DNA from: Deltaproteobacteria bacterium
Lineage (GTDB): Bacteria; CALINM01
DNA: 64,000 nt
Assembly: GCA_037442505.1 (NCBI GenBank)
Contig: JBBIPZ010000007.1
Coordinates: 3,758 to 67,757, forward strand
Reading direction: 5' to 3'
Shown piece by piece: positions 5,108 to 54,078 of the stretch; positions within the stretch are counted from its first letter, which is position 1; each line of letters begins with the position of its first letter. The notes below the pieces were generated by a model. That model ran no database searches, was not told the DNA's origin, and saw only the letters and a list, made by a program, of their open reading frames with translations. The position numbers were made by a program, and so were the translations under genes.

Positions 5108-5161
5108 TGATAGTGGCAAGTTCACATCGCCAGACCATTGGTGTTTAATTTATAAATTTTT

Positions 5162-5220
5162 AAAATCATTTAAAATGATTTTGAAAGCCTTTGCAAGGTT
5201 TTGCAAAGGCTTTATTTTTA
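5162..5220. terminator. Bidirectional intrinsic terminator between convergent clpB and cysE
   Basis: Perfect 13-bp inverted repeat AAAGCCTTTGCAA-ggtt-TTGCAAAGGCTTT followed by a T-run. A second AT-rich hairpin sits just upstream. Confidence 0.5.
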
Positions 5221-5910
5221 TTCTTTTTTGCCAGGTTCAGTTCTATCGAATGAACAGGTTGTAAACTCTTTGTGTTCCTTGGTGAGTTCTATAAGTCTTG
5301 TCTCTATGTCTCTAAGTTGATCCATCAGGCATTGCAGCACCTGTGCCTCTGGATCTGGCAACTTCTCGTCAACTTTAACACGAGCTTTTCCGCGATATGT
5401 AATTCTACCTGGCACACCAACCACAGTTGAATCATCTGGAACATCTTTAACAACAACAGAGCCCGAACCAATCAGGCAGTTGTTCCCAATCACTATTGGT
5501 CCTAAAACTTTTGCGCCCGCGCCTATAACCACATTATTACCAATGGTAGGATGTCTTTTACCCTTTTTCCATGATGTACCACCTAAAGTTACCCCATGAT
5601 AAAGTGTGACGTCGTCGCCTACTTCTGCTGTTTCTCCAATCACCACACCCATACCGTGATCAATGAAAAACCTTTTGCCAATCTTTGCTCCGGGATGTAT
5701 CTCAATTCCTGTTAGAAATCGAGCGATGTGAGAGAGAAATCTTGCTAAAAGTCTGAAATTTTTTCCCCACAAATAGTGGTTAACTCTATGAAAAAGTAGT
5801 GCGTGAAAGCCCGGGTAACATAGAATAATCTCAATTACACTTCTTGCAGCCGGGTCTCTTTCAAAAACCGAGTTGATGTCCTCTTTAATAGTTTTCAAAA
5901 ATTTGAACAT
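5218..5910 (-). CDS. cysE: Serine O-acetyltransferase
   Basis: SATase N-terminal helical domain followed by a hexapeptide-repeat left-handed beta-helix ([38 protein letters not shown]). Confidence 0.85.
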
Positions 5911-5918
5911 AATATTAG

Positions 5919-7559
5919 CTAAAATTTGATTGGGAAAATTATCCCAACCTCCGTTCCAATATCTTTTTTACTTTTATAATACACCTTTGCGTTATGAAAT
6001 ACAACCACACGTTTAAGAATATTCAAGCCAAGAGTAATAAAATCACCTTTCAGGTTAGTTTCAAAATTGTCTTTTGTTAGATAATTATTTATAGCATTAA
6101 GGACATTTTGTGGCATTCCACTGCCAGTATCTATAATACGTAAAACAGCATTTTTATCTTCCATTGATAGAACTAACATAATTTCGCCTTTATCAGGTGT
6201 GTATTTAATTGCGTTCCTTATAAGATGGAGAAAAGTTTGTGAAAGCATCAACTGTTCCCCTTTTATTACTATCGAAAAATTGGGTATATTCAGGTTAACT
6301 TTAATTTTCTTTTCGTCCAGCTCTTTTTCCACACGGCCGATAATGTTTTTAATAAGGTAAGTAAGGTCAATATCTCTTAGCATATAACGATCTTTTTCAA
6401 GGTTTAGACGTGCTAAAAATATTAAATCTTCGATAGTATTGTAAAGTTTTTCGGCACAAGTAAGCATTATGTCTATGCTCTGCTCTTGAAGAGGGGTTAG
6501 CTCTCCTAACTCCTTGTTTTTAAAAAGCTTTAGATAGCCAAACAGCGGTGTCAATGGGGTCTTAAATTCATGTGAGATACTTTGTAAAAAGTTACTTTTC
6601 ATTCTATCCAGATCCTTTAGTTCTTCATAAGCCTTTTCAAGCTGTCTCGTTTTTTCTTCCACGCGCTTTTCTAAATCTCTTTTTGTATCTTCCAGCTCAG
6701 CTGTTAATAACTCTAACTGCTGATTAGAAGCCTGCAGTTCTTCGTTCATTCCTTTTATTTCTTCAAATTGTTGCTCCAATTCCTGTTCGTTTTCTTGTAA
6801 CTTTTTAAGTGTTTCACTTATTATCTCGCCCAACATTCGCATTTCGCTACTCTTAAAGTCTCTAACTTCTACGTCATCAATGATGTTATTTTCCTCATAG
6901 TCTTTGCAAAGCCTGGATAGTTTAAAAAAGTCTTTCAAAAAGTTTTTATATAGTATGGTGGCAATAGTTATAATAAAAATTAAGGCTACCAATGAATAAA
7001 ATGAATAAAACAGAGGAAATATTGTAACTTTTTTGAGTAAATTATCGTGATAACTGCTTTCCATTCTTTTTAATGCATCCCGCACCGTTTGTGATAAACG
7101 CTCATAGTCAATTTTCTCATTCAGTATCTCCTGCGCTTTTGTTTCGTCATAAAGGTATTGAAAACTTAGCTTTAAAATATTATCGTTTTTAATCAGCATC
7201 TTTTCTAATGTTTCACTTAAAGTTTTTATGTTTGAGTCGCCTCTTTTATGACAATCGATACATCCATAATATTCAAATTTTTCATTAAAAACATTACGCA
7301 TGTCTTCGATTTTTTTTCGAACATCATCAAGATTCAATTCAACGGGAGTCTTCGATAACAATTTTTTCTGTATGAAAAGAGAATTTACCTGTCTATCTAT
7401 AATTATTGTGAGCTGATACAGTTGTTCTTCAAGCAACAGCAAGTCTTCATGTATTTTTAAAAATGATCTTGTTTCCTTGTAAAGTTTTATAGAAAAGAAA
7501 ACACCTGATAAAAAGAAAATACAGCAAAAAAACGTAACCCACAGAAAAGATTTCTTCAT
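5919..7559 (-). CDS. Sensor histidine kinase with a periplasmic domain carrying a CXXCH motif
   Basis: TM helix at aa 6-24, periplasmic stretch to about aa 180 containing GCIDCH (aa 99-104, nt 7245-7262), a second TM helix, a coiled coil, HisKA (SHEFKTPL) and HATPase (DTGSGMP). Confidence 0.85.
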
Positions 7560-7631: not shown

Positions 7632-8954
7632 TTATTTAAAAAACACGAAAGTTATCAAAATAAATAGAGGTATCAAAATACCGCAAGACCATGCCATATA
7701 GCCAAAAAATGAAGGCATTTTTATATCATTTTCTTCACAGATTGCCTTTACCATAAAGTTAGGTCCATTGCCAATATAAGTATTTGCACCCATAAAAACC
7801 GCACCCACAGAGACAGCGCGTAAATAAATTTCCGGTATACCAATAATCAAATTATCAACAATGCCTTTATACTGCGCCACACTTTGGGCAGTAGTGGCAA
7901 AGACTAAATAAGTTGGTGCGTTGTCAAGAAAGCTTGATAGGATACCAGTAGCCCAGTAGAATTGCCATGGCTCTGTTACACCCAATTTACTTCCGTTAAC
8001 TTGTAACATTTGCATAACAGGCACCATAGTTACAAAAATGCCGAAAAAGAGAATTGCCACTTCAATAATTGGATGGTAGGTAAATGCATTTTCTTCTCTT
8101 AAAGCTACAGGTGTAAAATAAATTGATGCTAATGCAGAGGCAATCATCATTGCTTCTCTTATAATGGGAGGAACGAAAAATGATACAATTACAATGAGTA
8201 AAAATAGAAAGTTGAGCTTACCCCTGATCTCAAGTTTTTTTTCGGGCAGCTCACCTAACGTTTCGGCTAATTTAGTTCTGTCTTCCTTTTTGATGAAATG
8301 GTTATCTAACAGAAAAAATATAAAAAGAAGTATTCCCACTGCAAAAAGCCAGAAAATAACTAGTTTAAATGTCCAGAAAAAGGGAACTCCTCTTAAAAAA
8401 CCAAGAAATAGTGGGGGATCTCCAAGTGGCGTTAATACTCCACCTATGTTAGATACCAAAAAAATAAAGAAAACACATAGGTGTACAATATGTTTACGCC
8501 ATTTGTTGATACGTAAGATTGGACGTATCAAAACCATGCTTGCACCTGTCGTTCCGATAAAACTGGCAAAAAAGGCTCCGATAAAAAGTAATAGCGTATT
8601 AATTTTAGGTGCACCGTTTGATCCTATTCTAATAACTATACCACCAGAAATTATAAAGAGAGAGCCCAGTAAGATGATAAAGGATATATATTCACTTAAA
8701 GAGTGTATCAACAACATTTTTTCTTTTGAAATAATCAAAATAGCCGCTGGAATTGCAAGCAATAAAGAAACTAATCCGTAACGTTTACCCCACCACTCAG
8801 CGTTTATCAGGGGGAAAACTGCTATTGCGAGTAATAGAGCAACAAAGAAAATCCCGCTCCAGATAGGAAAATCAACATTATGAGCTTCTGAATGTTCCGA
8901 AGCAAAGGCAAGCACAGGAGTAAACACACTAAATAATAAAAGCATCTTTTTCAT
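7632..8954 (-). CDS. ArsB/NhaD-superfamily (ion transporter) permease with signal peptide
   Basis: 440 aa polytopic membrane protein whose two halves look related. The family call rests on overall resemblance only. Confidence 0.45.
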   Translation of the reverse strand: MKKMLLLFSVFTPVLAFASEHSEAHNVDFPIWSGIFFVALLLAIAVFPLINAEWWGKRYGLVSLLLAIPAAILIISKEKMLLIHSLSEYISFIILLGSLFIISGGIVIRIGSNGAPKINTLLLFIGAFFASFIGTTGASMVLIRPILRINKWRKHIVHLCVFFIFLVSNIGGVLTPLGDPPLFLGFLRGVPFFWTFKLVIFWLFAVGILLFIFFLLDNHFIKKEDRTKLAETLGELPEKKLEIRGKLNFLFLLIVIVSFFVPPIIREAMMIASALASIYFTPVALREENAFTYHPIIEVAILFFGIFVTMVPVMQMLQVNGSKLGVTEPWQFYWATGILSSFLDNAPTYLVFATTAQSVAQYKGIVDNLIIGIPEIYLRAVSVGAVFMGANTYIGNGPNFMVKAICEENDIKMPSFFGYMAWSCGILIPLFILITFVFFK

Positions 8955-16898: not shown

Positions 16899-18656
16899 AT
16901 GGCAACCGTTAGAAAAAAGTTGGGTGAGTTGCTTATTGAAGCTGGATATATTAATGAAAAGATCCTTGAAGAAGCATTGAAAAATGCTGCGATGACAGGC
17001 AAAAGGATAGGAGAGGTTTTAATATCAGAGGGTTACATTACAGAAGATTTAATCGCTAAAGCGCTTGGTGAACAGTATAGGATTCCTTATATCGGAGAAA
17101 ACATTCTGGATGTTGAAAAACGTTTTGTTGATTTGATGCCCTCAGAACTTGCTTATAAACTAAATGCCTTGCCTATTTATGACACGCATACGGAAGTAAC
17201 TGTCGCAATAGTAGATCCTTTAAACATCAATGTAATGGATGAACTTAAAAGGTTTTTTAAAAAGCGTATAAAACCCGTTGTTACAACCGAAACATTAATG
17301 AAACAGGCTCTGAACAAATTTTATGCTACAAAAGGTGAAGATCTGGACAGAATATTAAAGCAGATCGATTTGAGGTCGTATGAAGCGAGAGCCTCAGACG
17401 AATCGCCTGAAAGATTGATGAGATTAGCTGAAGAAGCTCCAATTGTCCAGATCGTTAATGGGGTATTGATACAAGCCACTAATGATAGGGCAAGCGATAT
17501 TCATTTAGAAGGTGTAGGCAACAAATTGAGAATACGGTTTAGAATAGATGGAGTGCTACATGATATTGTTGAACTACCGAGGGCGTTGATGAATCCTATA
17601 ATTTCAAGAATAAAGATTATGGCAGATATGGATATTTCTGAAAAAAGACTGCCTCAAGACGGTCATATGCAGATGGAGGTCAGATTTCAGGAAGGTAGAT
17701 ACACCCTTGTTAGAACTTTCGTTGGCAGGTCTGTGTTGCGTTATGAAGAGCTAGAAGTTATTGATATAAGGGTGTCAACTACGCCTACCATTCAGGGTGA
17801 AAAGGTTGTGTTAAGGCTTTTAAAAAAACGAGACGAATTGCTTAACCTTGAAAATTTGAACATGGAAAGAGAGACCGTTGTTCGTGTAAGAAAAGCCTTG
17901 AACAGACCTTATGGTATGATTCTTATATCAGGACCTACCGGTTCTGGTAAAACGACGACTGCGTATGCCTGTTTAAAATATATCCACAAGAAAGAAAAAA
18001 ACATTATAACGATAGAAGACCCTGTTGAGTATCAGTTTATGGGTATAAATCAAATACAGATTAATCCAAAAATCGGCTTAACATTTTCGAATGCTTTAAG
18101 AAGCATATTAAGGCAGGATCCTGACATTATTTTAGTAGGTGAAATAAGGGATAAAGAGACAGCTGAAATTGCAATACATGCGTCTTTAACCGGGCATATT
18201 GTGATTTCGACAATACATACAAACAATTCAATAGCAACTATAGCAAGACTTCAGGATATGGGTATTGAGCCGTACCTTATATCTTCTTCTATTTCGTGTA
18301 TTATGTCTCAAAGGCTTTTACGCAAGATTTGCCCTTACTGCAAGAAGGATTACACTCCTATGGAGTCATTGATTGCTGAACTAAAGCTCCCCCCATTTAC
18401 AAAATTTTACAGAGGTAAAGGATGTCAAAAGTGTCGCGAAACGGGTTATATAGACAGAGTTGGAATTTACGAACTGCTTATTTTTACTGACAGGATAAGA
18501 GAACTTGTGTTAGCTAAGGCAGGCACAAAAGAAATTGCCGAAGCTGCGAAAAAAGAAGGATTTATATCGCTTGCAGAGGCTGGTATCAGGCTTGTTGTCA
18601 GCGGTATAACAACTATTGATGAAGTTGTTTCAGCCACATTGGAAGAGGGACTCTGA
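16899..18656 (+). CDS. pilB: Type IV pilus / T2SS assembly ATPase (GspE/PilB) with N-terminal GspE_N domain
   Basis: Walker A GPTGSGKTTT, Asp/His boxes, and the tetracysteine CPYC...CQKC motif. Confidence 0.9.
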   Translation: MATVRKKLGELLIEAGYINEKILEEALKNAAMTGKRIGEVLISEGYITEDLIAKALGEQYRIPYIGENILDVEKRFVDLMPSELAYKLNALPIYDTHTEVTVAIVDPLNINVMDELKRFFKKRIKPVVTTETLMKQALNKFYATKGEDLDRILKQIDLRSYEARASDESPERLMRLAEEAPIVQIVNGVLIQATNDRASDIHLEGVGNKLRIRFRIDGVLHDIVELPRALMNPIISRIKIMADMDISEKRLPQDGHMQMEVRFQEGRYTLVRTFVGRSVLRYEELEVIDIRVSTTPTIQGEKVVLRLLKKRDELLNLENLNMERETVVRVRKALNRPYGMILISGPTGSGKTTTAYACLKYIHKKEKNIITIEDPVEYQFMGINQIQINPKIGLTFSNALRSILRQDPDIILVGEIRDKETAEIAIHASLTGHIVISTIHTNNSIATIARLQDMGIEPYLISSSISCIMSQRLLRKICPYCKKDYTPMESLIAELKLPPFTKFYRGKGCQKCRETGYIDRVGIYELLIFTDRIRELVLAKAGTKEIAEAAKKEGFISLAEAGIRLVVSGITTIDEVVSATLEEGL

Positions 18657-26762: not shown

Positions 26763-27971
26763 ATGCATCTGGTAATAATTGGTTTAAGTGCCGCAGGTCT
26801 TACTGCTTTGGATACACTTGTAAAACATGCTAAGGACTGTAAAATAACAGTAGTTACAGAAGAACGATATGAACCATATTCACGCTGTCTTCTAACTAAC
26901 TATCTTGGCACAGAAATTGGACTTGGTAACCTTTTTATTTCTAACTCATCATTGTATCCTGCTAATGTAAAATGTATTTTTGGTAAAAAAGTAGTTAGTA
27001 TTGATAAAGATTCTAAAAAGCTGATACTGGGCGATGGTAGTTTTATTTTTTACGATAAGTTATTACTTGCTACTGGTGCTGAACCCATTAAACCAGCTTA
27101 TGCACTTAAAGCTAAAAGAGTGTTTACGTTAAGACGCATTCAGGATGTTAGCAAAATTTGCGAAAAACTCAACGATAAGGCGATAGTATTGGGTGGTGGA
27201 TTTGTAGGGATAAAAACCGCTTATGGGTTGCTTGAAAGGGATGTTAGGGTAAATCTTGTTATTTCATCTGCATATCCGTTATCAATGATACTTGATGAAG
27301 AATTGGGAAAGATTGTCGAAAGAGAGTTAAAGGATCTTGGAATATCGGTGTTTACAAATAGCGATGTTGTTGAAATTGCAAAAAAGCCCAATGGCATTTA
27401 TGCTGTTTTATCGTCAAACAAAACATTAGAGAGCGATGTGGTCATTGTGGGAAAAGGCGTCACGCCAAGAATAGAACTTGCAGAATCTGCTGGTGTTGCG
27501 ATTAATAAAGGAATCCTTGTAAACAGCTTTTTAGAGACATCAGTAAAAGATATCTTTGCTGCAGGGGATTGTGTTGAGGCATATGATATCACAAGGAAAG
27601 ATAATTTTATTAACGCAATCTGGCCAAATGCTGTAGAACAGGGCTATTATGCCGCAATGAATATGTTAGGTAACTGCTTGAGTTATTCAGGCAGCATAGG
27701 TTGTAACAGTTTAAAGACTAAAACGTTTCATTTAATTACTGCAGGGATTCTAAAAGGTAAGGATGTAAAGACATATAGACATTATGTGGCATCAAAAAAA
27801 CAGCTTCGTGAAGTTGCTTTTATTGATGACATACCAGTAGGAATGGCATTTTTAAATTCATTTGAAGACGCAGGTGTGCTAGTTAATTTGATTAAAAGGG
27901 GAGAGCCTATCAATTGTTTTCCCGAACAGTTAGTTAACGGAGAATATAATTTACTGCAAAACTTATTTTAG
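26763..27971 (+). CDS. FAD-dependent pyridine nucleotide-disulfide-family NAD(P)H oxidoreductase
   Basis: Two Rossmann dinucleotide motifs (VIIGLSAAG; VLGGGFVG) and a possible redox Cys (YSRC). Confidence 0.7.
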   Translation: MHLVIIGLSAAGLTALDTLVKHAKDCKITVVTEERYEPYSRCLLTNYLGTEIGLGNLFISNSSLYPANVKCIFGKKVVSIDKDSKKLILGDGSFIFYDKLLLATGAEPIKPAYALKAKRVFTLRRIQDVSKICEKLNDKAIVLGGGFVGIKTAYGLLERDVRVNLVISSAYPLSMILDEELGKIVERELKDLGISVFTNSDVVEIAKKPNGIYAVLSSNKTLESDVVIVGKGVTPRIELAESAGVAINKGILVNSFLETSVKDIFAAGDCVEAYDITRKDNFINAIWPNAVEQGYYAAMNMLGNCLSYSGSIGCNSLKTKTFHLITAGILKGKDVKTYRHYVASKKQLREVAFIDDIPVGMAFLNSFEDAGVLVNLIKRGEPINCFPEQLVNGEYNLLQNLF

Positions 27972-27973
27972 AG

Positions 27974-28582
27974 GTGATTTTTATGAAAACAGTTATAGTT
28001 AAACCCGAACGTTGTTTAGGTTGTTTGCAGTGCAGATTTGCATGTGCAGTGGCACATTCAAGGTCGAAGGATAGCTACACAGCTATCCGAGAAACACCTT
28101 TATCAAAACCAAGAATTCATATCGGACTTTTTAAAAACGCATCTCCCTTCCCAAACAAGTGTCGTCATTGTGATCCGGCACCATGTGAGAGGGCTTGTAT
28201 AACAAGGGCAATTTATCGTAACGAAGAGAAAAATATTGTCCTTATAGATCCTACACGCTGTATCAATTGTGGTATGTGTGCAATGGCATGCCCATTTGGT
28301 GTTGTGAGGTATCATGTCCAATTTAACAACAAGCTTGCTGCGCATAAGTGTGATCAATGTATTTTGAGACAAAGCGAAGGAAATGTGCCAGCTTGTGTAG
28401 AATCCTGCAAGGTAGGAGCGCTCGTATTTGGTGAAATTAATCATGAAATGGATAAAGAAACTGCTAAAGTTGCAGAACTTGTATGGTTAGGCATCCGTGA
28501 TAAAACTGAAAAAAGTGATGATGGCTTTAACACTTTAAAAGATTATAAAGCAAAATTAATTGAGATTGCCAGAAGGAGGTAG
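27974..28582 (+). CDS. CooF-like polyferredoxin (several 4Fe-4S clusters)
   Basis: Repeated CxxCxxC...CP motifs (CLGCLQCRFAC; CRHCDPAPC; CINCGMCAMACP; CDQC...C). Confidence 0.7.
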   Translation: MIFMKTVIVKPERCLGCLQCRFACAVAHSRSKDSYTAIRETPLSKPRIHIGLFKNASPFPNKCRHCDPAPCERACITRAIYRNEEKNIVLIDPTRCINCGMCAMACPFGVVRYHVQFNNKLAAHKCDQCILRQSEGNVPACVESCKVGALVFGEINHEMDKETAKVAELVWLGIRDKTEKSDDGFNTLKDYKAKLIEIARRR

Positions 28583-28587
28583 AGCAC

Positions 28588-30456
28588 ATGAAAGACTATA
28601 AAGATTACAGTATATGTAGTGATGCTCAACTGATGCTTAAAAAGGCAGAAACGGATAATGTAGAAACAGTCTGGGACAGACACAAAAAACAACAACCTCA
28701 TTGTGGATATTGTGAATTGGGGCTTTCTTGTAGAATATGTGCTATGGGACCGTGTAGAATTGACCCTTTTGGCGAAGGTCCACAAAAAGGTGTCTGTGGT
28801 GCAGATGCTGATATAATGGTTTCAAGAAACCTTGCGAGGATGATAGCTGCGGGTTCGGCATCTCATTCTGACCATGGAAGAGATCTTGTAGAAGTGTTAT
28901 ATAAAATTGGTGAAGGTAAGACTTCAGGTTATACAATTAAAGACGCCCAAAAGTTGAAAACGGTAGCTAAAGAGTATGGCATTGACGTGTCTGGTAAAGA
29001 TGAAAAAAGTATTGCAAAAGAATTGGCGTTAGCAATGATGGAAGATTATGGGATGAAGAAAGAAGCGATTACTTTTATTTCGAGAGCTCCTGCGAAGAGG
29101 GTAGAACTCTGGAGAAAATTACGCGTTCTTCCGAGGGGAATAGATAGGGAAACATCTGAAATGATGCATCGAACACATATGGGGGTGGATAATGATTATG
29201 TGTCTATCCTTTTACAGGCAGTGAGAAATAGTCTTTCTGATGGATATGGCGGTTCAATGATAGGAACAGAAGTTTCTGATATCATTTTTGGTACTCCCAG
29301 ACCCGCTTTTTCTTCTGTAAATTTGGGCGTGCTAAAAGAAGATATGGTTAATATACTTGTCCATGGACATAATCCCGTTGTTTCAGAGATGGTTTTTCTT
29401 GCTGTTAACGACCCTGCTATGATTGATGAAGCAAAGAAGGTAGGTGCAAATGGTATTAATCTTGCTGGACTTTGTTGTACAGGCAACGAATTAATGATGA
29501 GAAAGCAGGTGCCGATGGCTGGTAATCATTTGATGACGGAGCTAACAATGGTTACAGGTGTTGTTGAGGCAATAATTGTTGACTATCAATGTATAATGCC
29601 AGCACTTGGAGATGTTGCAAAGTGTTATCACACAAAGCTCTTTTCTACATCTGATAAAGCTAAATTTCCTTTTATGGAACATATTGAGTTTAATCCTGAA
29701 AATGCAAAAGAACAGGCTTATAAAATTGTTAGCATTGCTATACAAAACTTTAAAAATAGACGAAAAGATCGCATTAACATACCTGTTAGTCCTGTAAAAT
29801 CAATGACTGGTTTTTCAGTAGAGTCTATCGTAGAGGCTTTGGGTGGTTCTTTAACACCGTTGATAGAAGCAATCAAAGCAGGCAAGATTAAAGGGGCAGT
29901 TGGTGTAGTTGGTTGTAACAATCCAAAAGTGAAACAGGACTATGGGCATGTTGAGCTTATTAAGAAACTGATTGCAAATGATATTCTTGTTTTGACAACT
30001 GGTTGTGCAAATGTCGCAGCAGGCAAGGCAGGATTACAGTTGCCAGAGGCTAAAGAAATAGCTGGATCAGGTTTAAAAGAAATATGTGGTGCACTGGGAA
30101 TCCCCCCTTCTTTACACGTTGGTTCTTGTGTAGATAATTCTCGTATTCTTGTTATAGCATGTGCATTGGCAAATGCCTTAGGTGTTGATGTCTCTGATCT
30201 GCCGCTTGCTGGTGCTGCTCCAGAGTGGTATTCAGAGAAGGCTGTGGCGATAGGTTTTTATGTGATGGCTACTGGAATATTTACAGTTTTAGGAGTAATG
30301 CCGCCAATACTTGGCAGTAAAAATATTACTAATCTTGCTATCAATGGACTAAAGGATGTTTTTGGAGCAGCATTTGCTGTTGAGCCAGACCCATTGAAAG
30401 CTGCGGATTTAATTATTGAACATATAAACCAGAAAAGGAAAAAGTTAGGAATCTAA
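28588..30456 (+). CDS. cooS: Anaerobic Ni-dependent carbon monoxide dehydrogenase catalytic subunit
   Basis: 622 aa. N-terminal [20 protein letters not shown] cluster-D/B motif; C-cluster ligand motifs GVVGCNN and [10 protein letters not shown]. Not the shorter hybrid-cluster protein. Confidence 0.85.
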
Positions 30457-30478
30457 AGATATAAATTGGAGGTTATTT

Positions 30479-31090
30479 ATGAAGGTTTTGATACCGTTTT
30501 ATTCTATGTATGGACATGTGTACAGATTGGCAGAAGCAGTGGCAGAAGGTGTTAGAGATGTTGAGGGAGCAGAAGCTATTTTACGACAGGTGCCTGAAAC
30601 ACTTCCTTTTGAAGTGCTTCAAAAAATGAACGCAGTCGAAGCAAAAAAGAGATTTGAACATATTCCTGTTTGTACTGTTGAAGAGTTAGCAGAAGCAGAC
30701 GCAATAATTTTTGGAACTCCTACAAGATTTGGGAATATGTGTGGGCAGATGAGACAGTTTTTAGATGCTACAGGACAGTTATGGCAGAAAGGTGCATTGG
30801 TTGGAAAAGTAGGAAGCGTTTTTGTCTCCACTGCGACACAGCATGGTGGACAGGAATCAACCATATTAAGTTTTCACATAACCTTGTTGCATCATGGAAT
30901 GGTGATTGTTGGTTTGCCGTATGCTTTTCAAGCACAGATGCGAATAGATGAAGTGATTGGTTGTTCACCTTATGGTGCATCTACAATTGCTGGTGGGATG
31001 GGAGAACGTTTGCCAGGTGAAACAGAACTTTTAGGAGCTAAGTTTCAGGGAAAACATGTTGCTACAATTGCTAAAAAACTGTTGAAGTAA
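30479..31090 (+). CDS. wrbA: NAD(P)H:quinone oxidoreductase, flavodoxin-like (WrbA family)
   Basis: [24 protein letters not shown] matches the WrbA N-terminus. Confidence 0.8.
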
Positions 31091-44389: not shown

Positions 44390-45687
44390 ATGCTTCACCA
44401 AACTCTTGTGTATGTTTTGTTTTTTTCTCAGGCTTCTCCGGACTTATTTATGAGTTGCTCTGGACTAATTATCTAAAGATGTTCCTTGGGCATTCTGCTT
44501 ATGCTCAGTCTTTAGTTTTATGTATTTTTATGTGAGGAAATGGCTTTAGGCTCATATCTGGCTGTTTTTTTTCTAAAAAAATCAAAAAACCACTTTTAAT
44601 ATATGGAATAATAGAGTTCGTAATTGGAGCTTTTGCTCTTGTTTTTCACCTAATTTTCAAGACAATGTTAGATTTTTCATATGATATTGCAATTCCGTCA
44701 ATCGATAACAGTTTTTGGATTGTAGTTTATAAAATAACCATGTCATCGTTAATAATTTTTCTACAAACAGTGTTTTTGGGAATGAAGTTTCCACTATTGA
44801 GTTGTATTATCTACACAAAAGGTTATGGAGAAAGGGCAGTGGGTTTCACCTATGCTGCAAATACTATTGGGGCTATTTTAGGCGTAATCTTTGCTGTTCA
44901 TATAGGTTTTACTTTTCTTGGCCTAAAAAATTTGTTGTTTCTTGGTATTATACTTGACATATCTTTAGGGGTAATTCTTTTTTTCAATATACAGCGAGAA
45001 AAGAAGCCAGTTTTTTCACCCAAATTAATTTCAGTTTCAAGTTGTTCTTTAATTATTATCAGCTTTACGTTTTTAAATCTTGATAAATATAAACTTGCAT
45101 CTGGTGTTTGCAGAGAAGGTGTGATATTTACCACAAAGGATTACCATTTAAATTACTATAAAGATGGTAAGATAGCGAGTATCAGTGTTGTTGGAGATGG
45201 ACAATATGTTAGTATAAGGACGAATGGTAAATCTGATTCTGCGATTGCATTGAGTGAGGCAATTTTTCCTTCTGCTGATGAATTTACATCATCTTTAGCT
45301 GCATTGATCCCATACTTTTACAAACAAGATGCAAAAAATGTAGCAGTTATTGGCTTGGGAACTGGTCTAACATCACATGTTGCCTTACTTAATCCTAAAG
45401 TATCAAAAGTTGATAGCGATTTTCATCCAATTATTGAAAGAAATGGTCCTAAGTTAAGATTTTATGGAGCAGTGGCAAGGGAGATTTTAGAACTAAATAC
45501 GGGCAGTTTGCCAATTCTGGAACTGTTATTTAATGATAGCGAAAGTATTGTTAATGATATAACTCATACTCCATATTATCAGAAATCTTTCCAAGTTTCG
45601 TTAGCCACCAAGGCAAGAGACTTTATTTTAAAAGGTAACCCCCCTTCGATTTGCCAGCAAAACTGTTTACAGATATACAAAAAATAG
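44390..45687 (+). pseudogene. Disrupted gene for a spermidine-synthase-like membrane protein (N-terminal TM domain plus a degenerate SpeE-like domain)
   Basis: MLHQTLVYVLFF (frame 2), then FSGFSGLIYELLW...SLVLCIFM (frame 0, after the T7 run at 44419-44425), an in-frame TGA at 44532-44534, then EEMALGSYLA (frame 1), then KKPLLIYGIIEFVIGAFAL (frame 0, after the T8/A7 runs at 44564-44580), continuing into the 340-aa ORF. Confidence 0.45.
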
Positions 45688-45733
45688 TTAATTTTATCGA
45701 AAATAAAGAACTGATGAGTGGTCATTTCGGGTT

Positions 45734-46000
45734 ATGTTTAATCTTTTTTCTATCTTAATTCCAAATTTACCAGAGCAAGATGTTATGTTTATTTTAGATA
45801 AAATTGAAAAAAGTAAGAACTATCAAGAACTAAATTTTTTAGAAAAATTATGGTTAAAACTTTATAGGGCTATTAAGCAACGTGATTATAAGTCTATGAC
45901 GGTTATAGTAATGCAACTGCTGGAAAAAGATAAAGCCATGCCGCCTATAGATATAGAGTACCTGATGGCAGTATATATACTGGGAAACATTGTCTTATAA
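45734..46000 (+). CDS. Hypothetical small protein (88 aa)
   Basis: ORF only. Confidence 0.25.
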   Translation: MFNLFSILIPNLPEQDVMFILDKIEKSKNYQELNFLEKLWLKLYRAIKQRDYKSMTVIVMQLLEKDKAMPPIDIEYLMAVYILGNIVL

Positions 46001-48592: not shown

Positions 48593-49181
48593 TTTTCCTT
48601 AATCATATTAGCATATAAAAGGACAAAATATTTATCTTTTACTTTTGCCAAAGGAATTAAAAAACTAAATAAGTTTATTTTTTAGTTGCAATAACTAACA
48701 TTGCCTGTCCGGTAAAGCCTTTAATTTTTCCTATCAGAAATACTATGAATCCTAAGGGTAAAAGTAATCCCATTAATATCGGTTTTATTATTTTTTGTTT
48801 CTATAAAATTTTTCATTGATAGAATTATTTTTGTTTTTAATAAACAGACCTTGAATATAAGTCCCTATGCTTTCTGTGCATTTAATTATGGAAAGTGGTT
48901 CAAATTTGACATCCAACACTTTAAATTCTTCTGAATTTAATAAATAATTAATGCTTTTTTCGTTCCATCTTGTTAGATGATGAGGTGGGTAATCCCAAGG
49001 ACAGATTTGCATTTATATACCGAATTTTTAGGCTATTATAGCACAATATTGCATAGCAGGGGCAATTTTTTTATACAAAAACAACGTCAATATAGCTTTA
49101 CAAAAATTTACAGCTATTAATATTGAAAAAAATTTAGTGTGTGCTAATATTTAAATTAAAAAAAATTATGGGAGGCAAAAA

Positions 49182-50762
49182 ATGAAAAGGTTATTTTTAA
49201 TGTTGGTTCTTATACTTTTATTCTTTACCAACCATACCTCAGCAGCTAAGAAAATAGAAAAGGGAACTGCAGACAGCAAAGCTTGTTATCAGTGTCACGA
49301 TGAGATTAAGGCACTCAAAGAAGGTTCTAAACACGCGAAATTGGATTGTGGTCAATGTCACGGAAACTTATCTGAACACTTAGGGAATCCTGATACAAAA
49401 CCTTCAACAAATCTGGGACTTGATAACTGCGGCAGATGTCACAAAGACCAGTACGATTCATACTTTCAGGTAAATTATCATAAAAGAGCTAAGAAGGAAA
49501 AGGCAATCCCTGATGGTAGAGCACCACTGCTTGATAAGCTTCTTGCCGGTCATGGTTTTACAAAGGAGCATGCAGAGCCCAGAAGCCATCCCTTTATGTT
49601 AATTGACCATATCATTGTTGATAGAGCTTATGGTGGTAGATTCCAGTACAAAAACTGGGCTGATATAACAAAAACTGGTAAACCCTGGGATATCCTGATT
49701 GATACAAACAAGACAATTCCAGAATCTGCAAAAGCAGCAAATCCAACCTGCATTCAGTGCAAAACTTCTGATTTTGTAATGAAATGGGCATATTTAGGTG
49801 ATAAAAATCCAAAAGCAAAATGGGATAGAACATCAAATGTATTTGAAGTAATAAAGGATGCACAAAATCCAGTTGGTTGCATCCATTGTCATGATCCCCA
49901 TGCGGCAAAGGGAAGGGTAATAAGAGATGCCTTAATACGGGCGGTGCAAACATATGGAGATAGACCTTATAGTAAGAAAAATGACAAAAATGCTCTTGAT
50001 GTAAAAGAGTTCAGAGGCTATAGAAAGATTGGATTACTTAAGAAAAATGATTCAGTACTTATGTGTGCCCAGTGTCATGTGGAGTATGCCTGCAATCCTG
50101 GATTTGAGAAAGATGATTTTAACAAAAAGATAGGTTTTAATGACCAGAGAACCAATATATTCCCATGGAAGAATGTCTTTGATGTGCTTAAATTTTACGA
50201 TGAGATTAACTTTAGAGATTACAGACATCCAGTAACAGAGGCAAATCTGATTAAATTCCAACATCCTGAAACAGAGACGTTTTTTGACAGCAAACATGAA
50301 AGGGCAGGTGTAACCTGTGCTGATTGCCATATGGCAAAAACAAAAAATAAAGCTGGTAAAACTTATACATCACACTTTGTTGTAAGCCCGAGGGAAAATA
50401 TAAAAGGAACATGCCTCAAATGCCATAAAGACTGGACAGAGAAACAGGCAATATACACAATAGATAGCGTAAAAAACTATATAAAAGGAAAAATCAGAAA
50501 ATCTGAATACTGGTTGTCTCAGTTTATTGACAAGTTTGAAAAGGCAAAGAAGAAAGGTGTAAGCAAAGATGTGTTAAAAGAGGCAAGAAAACAGCATGAC
50601 ATAGCCCATGCTCACTGGGAATGGTGGACTGCAGAAAACTCCGATGGATTCCATAACCCTGACCAGGCAAGACAATCATTAGCAACATCTATCGAAGCTT
50701 CCAGGAAAGGAATAGAGATACTCGACAAGGCAATAAAGGAAAAGGTTATCACAGCCAAATAG
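49182..50762 (+). CDS. Octaheme cytochrome c nitrite reductase (TvNiR/ONR-like)
   Basis: Signal peptide. Eight heme motifs: CYQCH, CGQCH, CGRCH, CIQCK, CIHCH, CAQCH, CADCH, CLKCH. The fourth is a CXXCK, consistent with a Lys-ligated catalytic heme. SD GGGAGG. Confidence 0.8.
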   Translation: MKRLFLMLVLILLFFTNHTSAAKKIEKGTADSKACYQCHDEIKALKEGSKHAKLDCGQCHGNLSEHLGNPDTKPSTNLGLDNCGRCHKDQYDSYFQVNYHKRAKKEKAIPDGRAPLLDKLLAGHGFTKEHAEPRSHPFMLIDHIIVDRAYGGRFQYKNWADITKTGKPWDILIDTNKTIPESAKAANPTCIQCKTSDFVMKWAYLGDKNPKAKWDRTSNVFEVIKDAQNPVGCIHCHDPHAAKGRVIRDALIRAVQTYGDRPYSKKNDKNALDVKEFRGYRKIGLLKKNDSVLMCAQCHVEYACNPGFEKDDFNKKIGFNDQRTNIFPWKNVFDVLKFYDEINFRDYRHPVTEANLIKFQHPETETFFDSKHERAGVTCADCHMAKTKNKAGKTYTSHFVVSPRENIKGTCLKCHKDWTEKQAIYTIDSVKNYIKGKIRKSEYWLSQFIDKFEKAKKKGVSKDVLKEARKQHDIAHAHWEWWTAENSDGFHNPDQARQSLATSIEASRKGIEILDKAIKEKVITAK

Positions 50763-50774
50763 GCCATTAACTAA

Positions 50775-50805
50775 ATCTTGGGGGTGGTTAACCCATCCCC
50801 AAGAT
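50775..50805. terminator. GC-rich hairpin between the convergent nitrite reductase and radical SAM genes
   Basis: ATCTTGGGGGTGG-ttaa-CCCATCCCCAAGAT, an imperfect stem of about 12 bp. Confidence 0.4.
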
Positions 50806-50963: not shown

Positions 50964-52496
50964 CTAATTTCTACAAACATCGTATTTTATCTGATTCATA
51001 GCTTTTGTTTTAGCCATTGAATGTTTATCAAAAATCTTCCTGAAATGATAGCCATAAATAGCAAAAGTAACTGCTAAAGATAGAAATTTTGGCTTTTTTA
51101 TAACAGACCAAGTAAGCAATTTCCAATAACTTAAGCTCCCCTTTTTTAAGATACCGAGAAGCAAAAGAGATTTAATAAAAGCAGTAAAAGATTCAAAACT
51201 ATAGTGAAACAGCTTAGGTTGTAATGGTTTATACTCGCTCAGAAACCTTTTGATGCGGTTGTATAAATATTTTGGATTGTATATTGTTTTTACAATTTTT
51301 TCATACCCATCAACTAACTTACTCATCTCCATCTTTGTTAAAATATTTGTTGAAAAATCAGTATTATCACCCGACATATATTTTAAAATTCGGTTCTCTT
51401 CTTTCATTTTTTTAAATAACTTTGTTCTAACAGGGGCGTTTAGTATCCCCACCATAGCAGTTACAATGCTTGATTTCTCAATAAAGTTTATCACTCTATC
51501 AAAGATATCGAGTGGATCATTATCAAATCCAACGATAAATCCAGCCATAACATCAAATCCGTAACTTTGTATCTTCCTGACACTTAAGAGCAAATCTCTA
51601 TTTTTATTCTGATTTTTGCTGCATTCTTCAAGACTTTCGTAATGAGGAGATTCTATGCCAACAAAAAGGTTTAAAAAATTGGCGGTAGCCATAAGCTTCA
51701 TCAACTCTTCATCATCAGCAAGGTTTATTGAAACCTGAGTTATAAAAGAAAAGGGGTATTTATTATTTTTTTGCCATTCGATAATTGCTGGTAGTATCTG
51801 ATCTTTTAATATTTTTTTATTGCTGATAAAGTTGTCATCTACAAAAAAAACACCACCTTGCCATCCTAAGTTATACAGTATGTCAAGTTCTTTTAATATC
51901 TGGCTACAACTTTTTGTTCTTGGTTTTCTACCAAAAAGTGCAGTTATATCACAAAAATCACATTCAAATGGACAGCCACGCGAAAACTGCACACACATAG
52001 ATGCATAGTCATTGAGATTAATCAGGTTATAAGATGGGATAGGACTTTTAGTTAAATCTGCCCAATCATCAGTAGAGTATAACGCTTTAGGCTCACCATT
52101 AGATAAATCACTGATAAACATTGGAATTGTAATTTCACCTTCATTTAAAACAAAATGGTCAACACCTTCAAAATCAGTGTAACGTGACGTAAATAAAGGC
52201 CCACCAGCAACAATTTTTTTATTGAAAGACTTTACCTTTTTAATAACTTCTCTAACTGATTTTTCCTGAACTGACATAGCACTTATAAATACATAATCTG
52301 CCCATTTTATCTGTTCATCACTTAGTTTAGTTACATTTAAATCAACCAATCTTTTCTCCCATTCATTTGGGAGTAACGATGCAACTGTAAGCAGTCCAAG
52401 AGGTGGAAAGCTTGCTTTCTTATTTACAAACTGAAGGGCGTATTTAAAGCTCCAGAAAGTTTCTGGATATTGTGGATAGACTAATAAAACTTTCAT
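50964..52496 (-). CDS. B12-binding-domain radical SAM protein with a DUF4070-like C-terminus
   Basis: N-terminal cobalamin-binding Rossmann-like region and CPFECDFCD (CxxxCxxC); 510 aa. Confidence 0.8.
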   Translation of the reverse strand: MKVLLVYPQYPETFWSFKYALQFVNKKASFPPLGLLTVASLLPNEWEKRLVDLNVTKLSDEQIKWADYVFISAMSVQEKSVREVIKKVKSFNKKIVAGGPLFTSRYTDFEGVDHFVLNEGEITIPMFISDLSNGEPKALYSTDDWADLTKSPIPSYNLINLNDYASMCVQFSRGCPFECDFCDITALFGRKPRTKSCSQILKELDILYNLGWQGGVFFVDDNFISNKKILKDQILPAIIEWQKNNKYPFSFITQVSINLADDEELMKLMATANFLNLFVGIESPHYESLEECSKNQNKNRDLLLSVRKIQSYGFDVMAGFIVGFDNDPLDIFDRVINFIEKSSIVTAMVGILNAPVRTKLFKKMKEENRILKYMSGDNTDFSTNILTKMEMSKLVDGYEKIVKTIYNPKYLYNRIKRFLSEYKPLQPKLFHYSFESFTAFIKSLLLLGILKKGSLSYWKLLTWSVIKKPKFLSLAVTFAIYGYHFRKIFDKHSMAKTKAMNQIKYDVCRN

Positions 52497-52722: not shown

Positions 52723-54078
52723 ATGTTTAGTAAAATTAATAAAAATAGAATTTTTGTAATAAAATCTGGAGCTTTACAACCCCGTCCTGTTGTTTACTGG
52801 ATGAGTAGGGAACAAAGAGTAAGCGATAATTGGGCGCTGATATATGCGCAGAATATTGCATTAACTCTAAAAGTTCCATTATTTGTTGTATTTTGCCTTG
52901 TTTCTGATTTTCTGGGTGCAACTATCAGACATTACGGTTTTATATTGAGAGGGTTACAACAGGTAAAAGAAAAACTTAAATTAAAAAATATTCCTTTTTT
53001 CTTGTTGAACGGTGACCCATCTATAAAAATCCCCGAGTTTTTGTCTGAAGTCAAAGCTGGGCTTCTTGTTACAGACTTTGACCCTTTGAAGATTAAGAGA
53101 ACATGGAAAAATGAAATATCTAAAAAAATTAAAATTCCGTTTCACGAAGTGGATGCTCATAATATTGTTCCTGTCAGATTTGTTTCAAATAAACAGGAGT
53201 ATGGTGCATATACAATCAGACCTAAAATTATGAGGTTACTCGGGGATTTTTTAACCGAGTTCCCTCAAATTGTCAGGCATCCAGAAACTGCAAAGGCTGG
53301 TAATAACTCAGTAGAACCGGTTGAAATGATATCTTTACTTAAAGTTGATAGAAGCGTGCCTGAAATTAGCTGGTTAAAACCGGGAGAGGATGAGGCACAA
53401 AAGATTTTAAATGACTTTGTTAAAAATCGACTTAATGATTATGCGTTTAAAAGAAATAATCCAGTGTTAAACGGACAGTCCAATTTATCTCCGTATTTAC
53501 ATTTTGGACAGATTTCAGCTCAGAGGGTTGGATTGACAGTTATGTCAGCGGATATAAGAGAGGATTCTAAAATGGCTTTTCTTGAAGAATTAATTGTAAG
53601 AAAAGAGCTTTCTGATAATTTCTGTTATTACAATGAGGATTATGACAAAATTTTAGGTTTTCCTGAATGGGCAAGAAAGATTCTTGAAAAACATAAAAAA
53701 GATAAAAGAGATTACATCTACTCATTAGAGGCGTTTGAATATGCTAAAACACATGATCCTTTATGGAATGCGGCTCAGATAGAAATGGTAAAAAATGGTA
53801 AGATGCATGGATATATGCGCATGTATTGGGCAAAAAAGATACTTGAATGGTCACCTACTCCTGAAGATGCTTTTGCAATAGCTATTTATTTAAATGATAG
53901 ATACGAGCTTGATGGAAGGGATCCCAATGGTTACACTGGCATTGCCTGGTCTATAGGTGGCGTTCATGATAGAGCATGGGCGGAGCGGAAAGTTTTTGGA
54001 AAAATAAGATATATGAGCTTTAAAGGTTGTCAGAGCAAATTTGATGTTCAAGGTTATATTAATAAAATGACAGAGTAA
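52723..54078 (+). CDS. phr: Class II CPD photolyase (deoxyribodipyrimidine photo-lyase)
   Basis: N-terminus ALQPRPVVYWMSREQRVSDNWAL is typical of class II photolyases. FAD-binding C-terminal domain. Confidence 0.85.
   Translation: MFSKINKNRIFVIKSGALQPRPVVYWMSREQRVSDNWALIYAQNIALTLKVPLFVVFCLVSDFLGATIRHYGFILRGLQQVKEKLKLKNIPFFLLNGDPSIKIPEFLSEVKAGLLVTDFDPLKIKRTWKNEISKKIKIPFHEVDAHNIVPVRFVSNKQEYGAYTIRPKIMRLLGDFLTEFPQIVRHPETAKAGNNSVEPVEMISLLKVDRSVPEISWLKPGEDEAQKILNDFVKNRLNDYAFKRNNPVLNGQSNLSPYLHFGQISAQRVGLTVMSADIREDSKMAFLEELIVRKELSDNFCYYNEDYDKILGFPEWARKILEKHKKDKRDYIYSLEAFEYAKTHDPLWNAAQIEMVKNGKMHGYMRMYWAKKILEWSPTPEDAFAIAIYLNDRYELDGRDPNGYTGIAWSIGGVHDRAWAERKVFGKIRYMSFKGCQSKFDVQGYINKMTE

Follow-up and report, generated by a model that had tools for sequence, protein, structure and literature searches.

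An octaheme cytochrome c nitrite reductase encoded by a lone gene in a low-GC deltaproteobacterial genome

The onr gene and its product

The stretch of DNA analysed, hereafter the window, comprises 64,000 nucleotides (64 kb) of contig JBBIPZ010000007.1 (assembly GCA_037442505.1, Deltaproteobacteria bacterium), and the gene under study, onr, is an open reading frame (ORF) at 49182..50762 on its forward strand, with an ATG start and 526 codons before the stop, which encodes the precursor of an octaheme cytochrome c nitrite reductase (ONR). The G+C content is 37.8% for onr and 34.6% for the whole window. A regular-expression scan located eight heme c motifs in the protein, starting at amino acids 35 (CYQCH), 56 (CGQCH), 83 (CGRCH), 190 (CIQCK), 233 (CIHCH), 295 (CAQCH), 379 (CADCH) and 411 (CLKCH), that is, three CXXCH motifs, one CIQCK and four further CXXCH motifs. 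The original prediction, made from the DNA letters, had described eight motifs in the order typical of TvNiR, the enzyme of Thioalkalivibrio nitratireducens, and this order was found between residues 35 and 411 and is common to 120 of 122 family members (HHHKHHHH). Sixteen of the 17 cysteines lie within the motifs, the remaining one being Cys304. Such a pattern does not arise by chance, since among the six-frame ORFs of the window with 100 amino acids or more, onr alone carries more than one CXXC[HK] motif.

The sole hydrophobic segment of the protein is N-terminal (MKRLFLMLVLILLFF), with a Kyte-Doolittle value of 1.92 at residue 4 compared to a maximum of 0.36 elsewhere. In the AlphaFold2 model described below, the N-terminus forms a helix at residues 2-18 followed by a low-confidence linker, and the alignment pairs residue 9 of the TvNiR chain with residue 30 of the window ONR, placing chain residue 1 at about residue 22. 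Hydrophobicity, model and alignment were combined to predict a Sec signal peptide at amino acids 1-21 (49182..49244, forward strand), with a putative cleavage site at MKRLFLMLVLILLFFTNHTSA-AKK, consistent with the signal peptide that had been proposed. These features fit a soluble, periplasmic protein exported via Sec. The predicted protein is Lys-rich and basic (13.3% Lys, isoelectric point of 9.2).

When all sequences of the Protein Data Bank (PDB) were searched with phmmer, the top match was the ONR of Trichlorobacter ammonificans (8rv0, E-value of 2.5e-182), which aligned over residues 33-518 with 53% identity, followed by the Thioalkalivibrio enzymes TvNiR and TvPaR, with E-values from 1e-164 (2ot4) to 4e-159 over residues 30-522 and 51% identity to TvNiR. 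Matches to the pentaheme nitrite reductase NrfA were found at about 1e-32 and were confined to the C-terminal part, from about residue 188, while no chains of Otr, HAO, IhOCC or MccA (1sp3, 1fgj/4qo5, 4rkm) appeared in that search up to an E-value of 1. Moreover, the NCBIfam NrfA equivalog models scored far under their cut-offs (153 bits vs. 595 for NF008339 and 133 vs. 692.5 for TIGR03152).

An AlphaFold2 monomer model was built on 43 homologs, with a mean local confidence (pLDDT) of 85.6 and a predicted template modelling score (pTM) of 0.84. Compared by Foldseek, it superposed on 8rv0 with TM scores of 0.89/0.95 and a root-mean-square deviation of 1.8 Å, and on the TvNiR and TvPaR structures with TM scores of 0.88-0.90, the sulfite-bound structures of TvNiR being among the top matches. 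Lower scores were obtained for NrfA (0.55-0.62), OcwA (0.37) and MccA (0.18, E-value of about 0.01). Otr, HAO, IhOCC and MccA were absent from the 36 fold matches at E ≤ 0.001, and both Otr and HAO from the top 50 matches listed. Long C-terminal helices were predicted at residues 420-457, 462-483 and 493-525, a region that contains many invariant columns. Overall, by both sequence and predicted fold, the onr product is a bona fide member of the TvNiR-type ONR family.

The active-site residues were mapped from TvNiR by pairwise alignment, using residue names that we take from the TvNiR literature. Residues R131, K188, E302, Y303, C305, K358, Q360 and H361 of TvNiR corresponded to the identical residues R148, K194, E301, Y302, C304, K358, Q360 and H361 of the window ONR. 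Along the gene (all on the forward strand), the N-terminal tri-heme region with motifs 1-3 (codons 35-39, 56-60 and 83-87) spans 49284..49442, and all of its motif residues are invariant in the 43 aligned ONRs. It is followed by Arg148 (49623..49625), the counterpart of the active-site Arg131, and by the CIQCK motif of the catalytic heme 4 (49749..49763), where Lys194, equivalent to TvNiR Lys188, is the predicted proximal ligand, as the original prediction of a Lys-ligated heme implied. The motif of heme 5, CIHCH, occupies 49878..49892, and that of heme 6, CAQCH, continues into V-E301-Y302-A-C304 (50064..50093), which would supply the Ca ligand Glu301, the catalytic Tyr302 and its thioether partner Cys304. 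Between motifs 6 and 7, K358-F-Q360-H361 (50253..50264) contains the Ca-site Lys and Gln and the catalytic His, and the motifs of heme 7 (CADCH) and heme 8 (CLKCH) lie at 50316..50426. The columns of Arg148, Tyr302, Cys304 and His361 were invariant in the 43 aligned ONRs. The Ca site, which we take to be formed in TvNiR by E302, K358 and Q360, is also kept as Glu301, Lys358 and Gln360, with no Arg substitution, and the Tyr302-x-Cys304 spacing is correct for the predicted thioether cross-link. The alignment with TvNiR, one of the checks that had been suggested, found the Arg, Tyr and His residues and the Tyr-x-Cys pair all kept, and the opposite outcome, an Otr or HAO-like protein lacking the catalytic triad, was not observed.

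The ONR family has been defined by seven CXXCH and one CXXCK motifs together with the active-site Tyr, Arg and Cys (PMC5433712), and in a later survey by three CXXCH, one CXXCK and four CXXCH motifs with a His between the sixth and seventh heme sites, all ONRs being Ca-dependent (PMC10716430). In ONRs of this type, a covalent Tyr-Cys bond is present in the active site (PMC6209398, PMC12285233), and the oligomer is a stable homohexamer (PMC5433712). As far as the sequence can tell, the window protein has this Ca2+-dependent type of active site. Furthermore, 138 of the 139 near-invariant columns (≥95% conserved in 122 ONRs) were matched, the exception being position 200, where Leu is conservatively replaced by Met. 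Tyr302 and Cys304 are separated by Ala, the residue found at this place in 51 of the 122 members, and 61 have Asn. The ratio of nonsynonymous to synonymous substitution rates (dN/dS) was 0.08 against the ortholog of the closest relative, locus L022 (94% amino acid identity), which indicates strong purifying selection on onr. Altogether, the gene is intact and its product is probably functional.

Relatives and gene arrangement

The closest relatives of the window ONR were 94, 86, 86 and 81% identical to it, followed by a gap down to 63% and then by a large set at 50-60%. The exact sequence is not on record in public assemblies. In a metagenomic protein collection, the homolog search yielded at least about 115 clusters with relatives of nearly full length, 50-63% identical to the window ONR, and a survey of a million genomes reported 106 non-redundant onr genes, spread over 14 bacterial phyla and one archaeal phylum, which is about one tenth of the 1155 nrfA genes (PMC10716430). 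The description of the family as rare in the original prediction is thus overstated, and uncommon would be a better word. For the host, the GyrA protein encoded in the window had relatives at 70-95% identity, and the nearest named ones, at 57-59%, belonged to Thermodesulfobacteriota and to metagenome-assembled genomes labelled 'Deltaproteobacteria'.

The gene content of the window was surveyed with Pfam, covering nearly all ORFs of at least 100 amino acids that were not nested in a longer gene. This survey found no NrfH, NrfB, NapC, CymA, Nap or nrf genes in the 64 kb, in line with the claim that no NrfH/NrfB-type partner is adjacent to onr, and no genes for ccm or ResBC/CcsBA, the heme-lyase systems that had been proposed as a further check. 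The window does not encode other multiheme cytochromes either. Consequently, onr is a lone gene in the window, as the term stand-alone had conveyed.

The arrangement was different in two of the close relatives. In loci L023 and L024, whose ONRs are about 85-87% identical to that of the window, a gene for an exported, tetraheme NapM-like cytochrome of 112-113 amino acids starts within about 20-25 nt of the end of onr, and a gene for NapA with a Tat leader comes next. In L024, genes for NapD, a NapG-like ferredoxin and a NapH-like membrane Fe-S protein come after napA, while the contig of L023 ends within the gene after napA. The clusters extend over positions 5693-13730 in L024 and 271-4528 in L023. 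The napA gene of L024 is read as two ORFs (227 and 541 amino acids) with a 4-nt overlap, which would reflect either a frameshift or an assembly error. The napMADGH arrangement has been documented in Thermodesulfobacteria and Desulfobacterota (PMC5276818). Moreover, in L016, L017 and L024, onr is directly preceded by genes for a histidine kinase and an OmpR-family regulator, the kinase having a Tll0287-like sensor domain, with a CxSCH heme motif in L016 and L024, the two that were translated.

Searches with tblastn found no match in the window to the napM, napA, napD, napG and napH genes of these relatives, and the search for orthologs of the L016 and L024 kinase and regulator gave as its sole match in the window a generic kinase-domain hit (24-25% identity) to the ORF at 5919-7559 on the reverse strand. 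This ORF encodes a histidine kinase of 546 amino acids with a CIDCH heme c motif at residues 100-104 and no adjacent response regulator. Read by eye, the motif is flanked by two hydrophobic segments, one at the N-terminus and the other near residue 190, so the protein looks like a sensor with a periplasmic c-type heme. It was considered as an ortholog of the Tll0287-like kinases and rejected, as only the kinase core matches.

No neighbouring cytochrome accompanies onr in three other close relatives (L001, L016 and L022), and lone onr genes of this kind were also found in distant loci, namely L018, Desulfuromonas sp. TF (L019), Geomonas subterranea (L020) and L021, so that the lone arrangement is common across the family. 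Within the clade of the window, however, the lone state is probably derived from a regulator-onr-nap module, because the relatives at about 86% identity carry onr-napMADGH and three loci carry the kinase and regulator upstream. The stand-alone character of the gene is thus correct for the window, but it does not set the gene apart in its family. Two further neighbours of onr were recorded among these loci. In L016, the relative at 81% identity, a gene for a hemerythrin-domain protein (7643-8056, reverse strand) is convergent with onr. Hemerythrins are often O2- or nitric oxide (NO)-binding or sensing proteins, and this one may be relevant to a role in nitrosative stress. In L021, a Prismane-family gene (4177-5859, 560 amino acids) lies directly upstream of onr, and its product was taken for a candidate hybrid-cluster protein by its length alone.

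Flanking sequences and neighbouring genes

The 170 nt upstream of onr were compared in six loci with differing upstream genes (the window, L001, L016, L022, L023 and L024). A conserved element was detected, which in the window occupies 49097..49121 on the forward strand and consists of TTTACA repeats at 49097-49102 and 49107-49112, 10 bp apart, followed by ATTAAT. Direct TTTACA repeats at 10-bp spacing were present in all six loci, with three copies in five of them and two perfect copies in the window, and the box after the repeats reads ATTAAC in the compared loci and ATTAAT in the window. Two occurrences of the repeat pattern were counted in the window, compared to 0.12 expected. The only other exact TTTACA-N4-TTTACA lies at 18396-18411 (forward strand), inside the 3′ end of a gene for a PilB/T2SS-E ATPase and just before a T2SS-F gene, and it is probably a chance occurrence, though it has the same form as the element upstream of onr. 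Binding sites of the OmpR/PhoB family are usually direct repeats one helical turn apart. Since the TTTACA repeats have this form and a regulator of this family adjoins onr in three loci, they can be regarded as a putative operator of an OmpR-family response regulator.

Downstream of this element, a putative sigma-70-type promoter was identified at 49123..49150 (forward strand), with the -35 hexamer TTGAAA (49123-49128), a 16-nt spacer and the extended -10 element TGCTAATAT (49142-49150). The TTG of the -35 hexamer was found at the same position in the six upstream regions, with a TAATAT-like -10 hexamer at the matching position, while the extended -10 (TG two bases upstream) was present in the window, L001, L016 and L023 and not in L022 and L024. 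It should be noted that a scan for the promoter consensus alone performed at chance level (12 found vs. 11.4 expected), so it is the conservation across loci that carries weight. A Shine-Dalgarno sequence, GGGAGG (49170..49175, forward strand), precedes the ATG by 6 nt, and its GGAGG core is found before the start codon in all six loci.

On the other side of the gene, a perfect 13-bp hairpin without a U-tract begins 13 nt past the stop codon (50775..50805, forward strand), with a folding energy of -23 kcal/mol and a z-score of -4.6. It was missed by the consensus terminator scan because it lacks the U-tract, and Rfam yielded no RNA element near onr. The hairpin probably represents either the transcript end or an mRNA-stabilising structure between convergent genes. 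GC-rich inverted repeats were also read by eye, without folding, 3′ of onr in L001, L016 and L022, while in L023 and L024 the next gene begins about 20-25 nt past onr and leaves no room for a hairpin.

The 590-bp gap upstream of onr contains the remnant of a CMAS-type S-adenosylmethionine (SAM) methyltransferase gene, corresponding to its 3′ third (48658..48997, reverse strand) and including an ORF of 74 amino acids (48788..49012). In tblastx comparisons with L022, the remnant showed 84% identity over 57 amino acids and 62% over 48, and according to its gene table L022 has an intact gene of this type upstream of onr. A local deletion or rearrangement appears to have removed the rest of the gene, ending near the operator, and it may explain the missing third TTTACA repeat.

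Upstream of onr, the window encodes an ABC transporter. Downstream lie genes for a photolyase, a Cu-ATPase and a GGDEF protein, preceded by one for a B12-binding radical SAM/DUF4070 protein (50964..52496, reverse strand), which is convergent with onr, as had been stated. A gene of the same family lies 2.6 kb downstream of onr in L021 (10262-11740). A link between onr and the radical SAM gene was considered and rejected, since beyond L021 the family was absent from the gene tables or ORF lists of the other nine related loci that were examined, and its recurrence near onr in L021 and the window is probably coincidental.

Other contents of the window are ClpB, a type IV pilus/type II secretion system (T2SS) cluster, biotin synthesis genes, a CooS-CooF carbon monoxide (CO) dehydrogenase cluster, DnaG, RpoD and GyrA. 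The CO dehydrogenase cluster (26763-31090, forward strand) comprises four genes, for an FAD/NAD(P) oxidoreductase (402 amino acids), a CooF-like 4Fe-4S protein (202 amino acids), CooS (622 amino acids) and a WrbA NAD(P)H:quinone oxidoreductase. CooS was identified as the catalytic subunit of anaerobic Ni-CO dehydrogenase (TIGR01702, 721 bits vs. a cut-off of 478), and the cluster suggests that the host oxidises CO with NAD(P)+ or a quinone as electron acceptor. At 44665-46000 (forward strand), an ORF of 340 amino acids matches only positions 92-190 of a fused MFS/spermidine synthase model of 480 positions, below the cut-off, and is followed by an ORF of 88 amino acids without a family match; this region possibly represents a gene that has decayed or diverged. 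A class II deoxyribodipyrimidine photolyase is encoded at 52723-54078 (forward strand; TIGR00591, 648 bits). CooS, the radical SAM enzymes and the ONR suggest that the host is an anaerobe, for which the photolyase hints at a light-exposed habitat.

Physiological role and comparison with known systems

Considering the conserved active site and the predicted fold, onr very probably encodes a functional periplasmic ONR of the TvNiR/TaNiR type that would reduce nitrite to ammonium, TaNiR being the enzyme of T. ammonificans. The precursor would be exported via Sec and its eight hemes covalently attached, and electrons would then travel through the bis-His hemes (1-3 and 5-8) to heme 4, ligated by Lys194 of CIQCK. 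There, nitrite would be reduced by six electrons to ammonium in the pocket formed by Arg148, Tyr302 and His361, next to the Ca2+ site of Glu301, Lys358 and Gln360, with Tyr302 probably thioether-linked to Cys304. The gene would be monocistronic, with the sigma-70-like promoter and TTTACA repeats before it and the strong hairpin after it. The original prediction had also proposed that the N-terminal tri-heme domain replaces a separate electron-transfer partner, an idea for which no support was found: lacking a membrane anchor, the ONR would be unable to oxidise quinol itself, and in relatives the genes for NapGH and NapM remain beside onr. Electrons would rather be delivered by a quinol-oxidising system encoded elsewhere, most plausibly of the NapGH/NapM type as in the closest relatives, and the ONR would complete nitrate or nitrite ammonification under the control of an OmpR-type regulator paired with a heme c sensor kinase. 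For TaNiR, the ammonifying role has been proven in vivo, and the ONR homolog of Desulfurivibrio has been proposed as an ammonifying nitrite reductase (PMC12142623). Joint action of ONR and Nap is reported for T. ammonificans and T. lovleyi (PMC11972089) and also for Desulfurivibrio (PMC12142623).

Several observations weigh against this explanation. Neither a nitrate reductase nor a quinol dehydrogenase is encoded in the window, which also lacks cytochrome c maturation genes and a cognate two-component system, and the regulation of onr may be altered in this genome, since its operator has two TTTACA copies vs. three in five of the six regions and the pseudogene remnant abuts the promoter region. 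Furthermore, the physiological role of ONRs in general, whether respiration or detoxification, has been stated to be unclear (PMC10949509). A possible although less probable explanation is that the ONR acts as a stand-alone detoxification enzyme (of nitrite, NO, hydroxylamine or peroxide), like NrfA in non-ammonifying sulfate reducers, rather than as a respiratory terminal reductase. Such a function would be compatible with an onr gene apart from nap and the two-component system, with the frequency of lone onr genes, with the Prismane-family gene and the hemerythrin gene next to onr in L021 and L016, and with the activity of TvNiR, which also reduces hydroxylamine, peroxide and sulfite, the latter to sulfide in vitro (PMC5433712). 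However, the nearest relatives with linked nap genes (86% identity) speak for a Nap-ONR module with a respiratory function, the ONR is the sole nitrite reductase for dissimilatory nitrate reduction to ammonium in T. ammonificans, with the Desulfurivibrio homolog pointing the same way (PMC11972089, PMC12142623), and the nap genes of this genome may sit outside the window.

It is improbable that the protein serves mainly as a dissimilatory reductase of sulfite or another sulfur oxyanion. The sulfite reduction reported for TvNiR and the sulfite-bound structures among the top fold matches would agree with this function, as would the placement of the nearest named GyrA relatives in Thermodesulfobacteriota, where sulfur metabolism is widespread; nevertheless, the dedicated octaheme sulfite reductase MccA was no match, all the nitrite-specific active-site residues are kept, and close relatives link onr to nitrate reductase and not to sulfur genes. 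Still slightly less credible is a decaying, unexpressed relic left by the loss of the nap operon and its regulator. The pseudogene remnant directly upstream, the operator one repeat short of five of the six compared regions and the absence of nap and two-component system from the window would be expected in such a case, but the frame is intact, the near-invariant columns and the low dN/dS argue for a maintained protein, and the Shine-Dalgarno, -35 and -10 elements are preserved. Finally, an identity as another octaheme family (Otr, HAO/epsilon-Hao, IhOCC or MccA) or as an N-terminally extended NrfA, conceivable among multiheme relatives with overlapping activities and with Pfam assigning the protein only to the general Cytochrom_C552 family, is refuted by the sequence, fold and equivalog tests above and by a tri-heme region that aligns along its whole length with solved ONRs.

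Reduction of nitrite to ammonium being the favoured role, onr marks its organism as a potential nitrite ammonifier, and ammonification retains nitrogen that would otherwise be lost as gas. The gene itself is a further ordinary member of a known, well-characterised family. The structural and biochemical characterisation of ONRs dates from 2006-2009. What is mildly new is confined to the picture of the clade, that is, onr-napMADGH, the two-component system with a heme c sensor, the conserved TTTACA operator and the break-up of the module in the window genome. Within this one clade, some loci have onr in a complete onr-napMADGH cluster together with the kinase and regulator, others pair it only with the regulator genes, and others have it by itself, with promoter and operator conserved in every case. 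A stand-alone gene should therefore not be taken to mean that its enzyme is self-sufficient. We tentatively suggest that the Tll0287-like kinase, which would sense through a c-type heme in the periplasm, and the OmpR-family regulator, acting on the TTTACA operator with its 10-bp spacing, might govern onr across the clade, and might still do so in trans where onr is separated from the regulator genes and napMADGH. If true, this heme c sensor circuit would be a previously undescribed nitrite/NO- or redox-responsive control of ammonification genes. The TTTACA element and the OmpR-type regulator constitute a testable pair.

Compared with the onr-nap clusters of L023 and L024, the window shares the upstream TTTACA repeats, the ATTAAC box, the -35 and -10 elements and the Shine-Dalgarno sequence. 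In contrast, napM-like and napA genes follow onr in both clusters, with napD, napG and napH also present in L024, where the kinase and OmpR regulator precede onr, while in the window onr ends at a hairpin, has two TTTACA copies and lacks nap and kinase/regulator genes. With regard to the enzymes of known structure, TaNiR (8rv0, 8rvm, 8rxu) resembles the window ONR in its full-length alignment, fold, heme motif order, and Arg, Tyr, Cys, His and Ca-site residues, and differs in having Asn instead of Ala between the cross-linked Tyr and Cys. The ONR of T. ammonificans works with Nap, and the onr gene of T. lovleyi adjoins nap genes (PMC11972089), whereas no nap genes accompany onr within the window; moreover, TaNiR comes from a host of the Geobacterales, and the window ONR from a low-GC (34.6%) uncultured lineage. 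TvNiR and TvPaR (2ot4, 3sxq and others), the latter from Thioalkalivibrio paradoxus, are also alike in fold (TM score of about 0.89), catalytic and Ca-site residues, and long C-terminal helices. However, alignment gaps indicate several surface insertions in TvNiR that the window ONR does not have, and its Lys-rich, basic composition differs from that of the acidic, Lys-poor haloalkaliphilic TvNiR and TvPaR, being nearer to that of the non-halophilic ONRs (PMC5433712). On the other hand, the pentaheme NrfA, whose partner genes nrfH or nrfBCD are not adjacent to onr in the window, has a homologous C-terminal five-heme catalytic module with the CXXCK heme, the Arg/Tyr/His pocket and the Ca site, to which the window ONR adds three N-terminal hemes and the Tyr-Cys pair.

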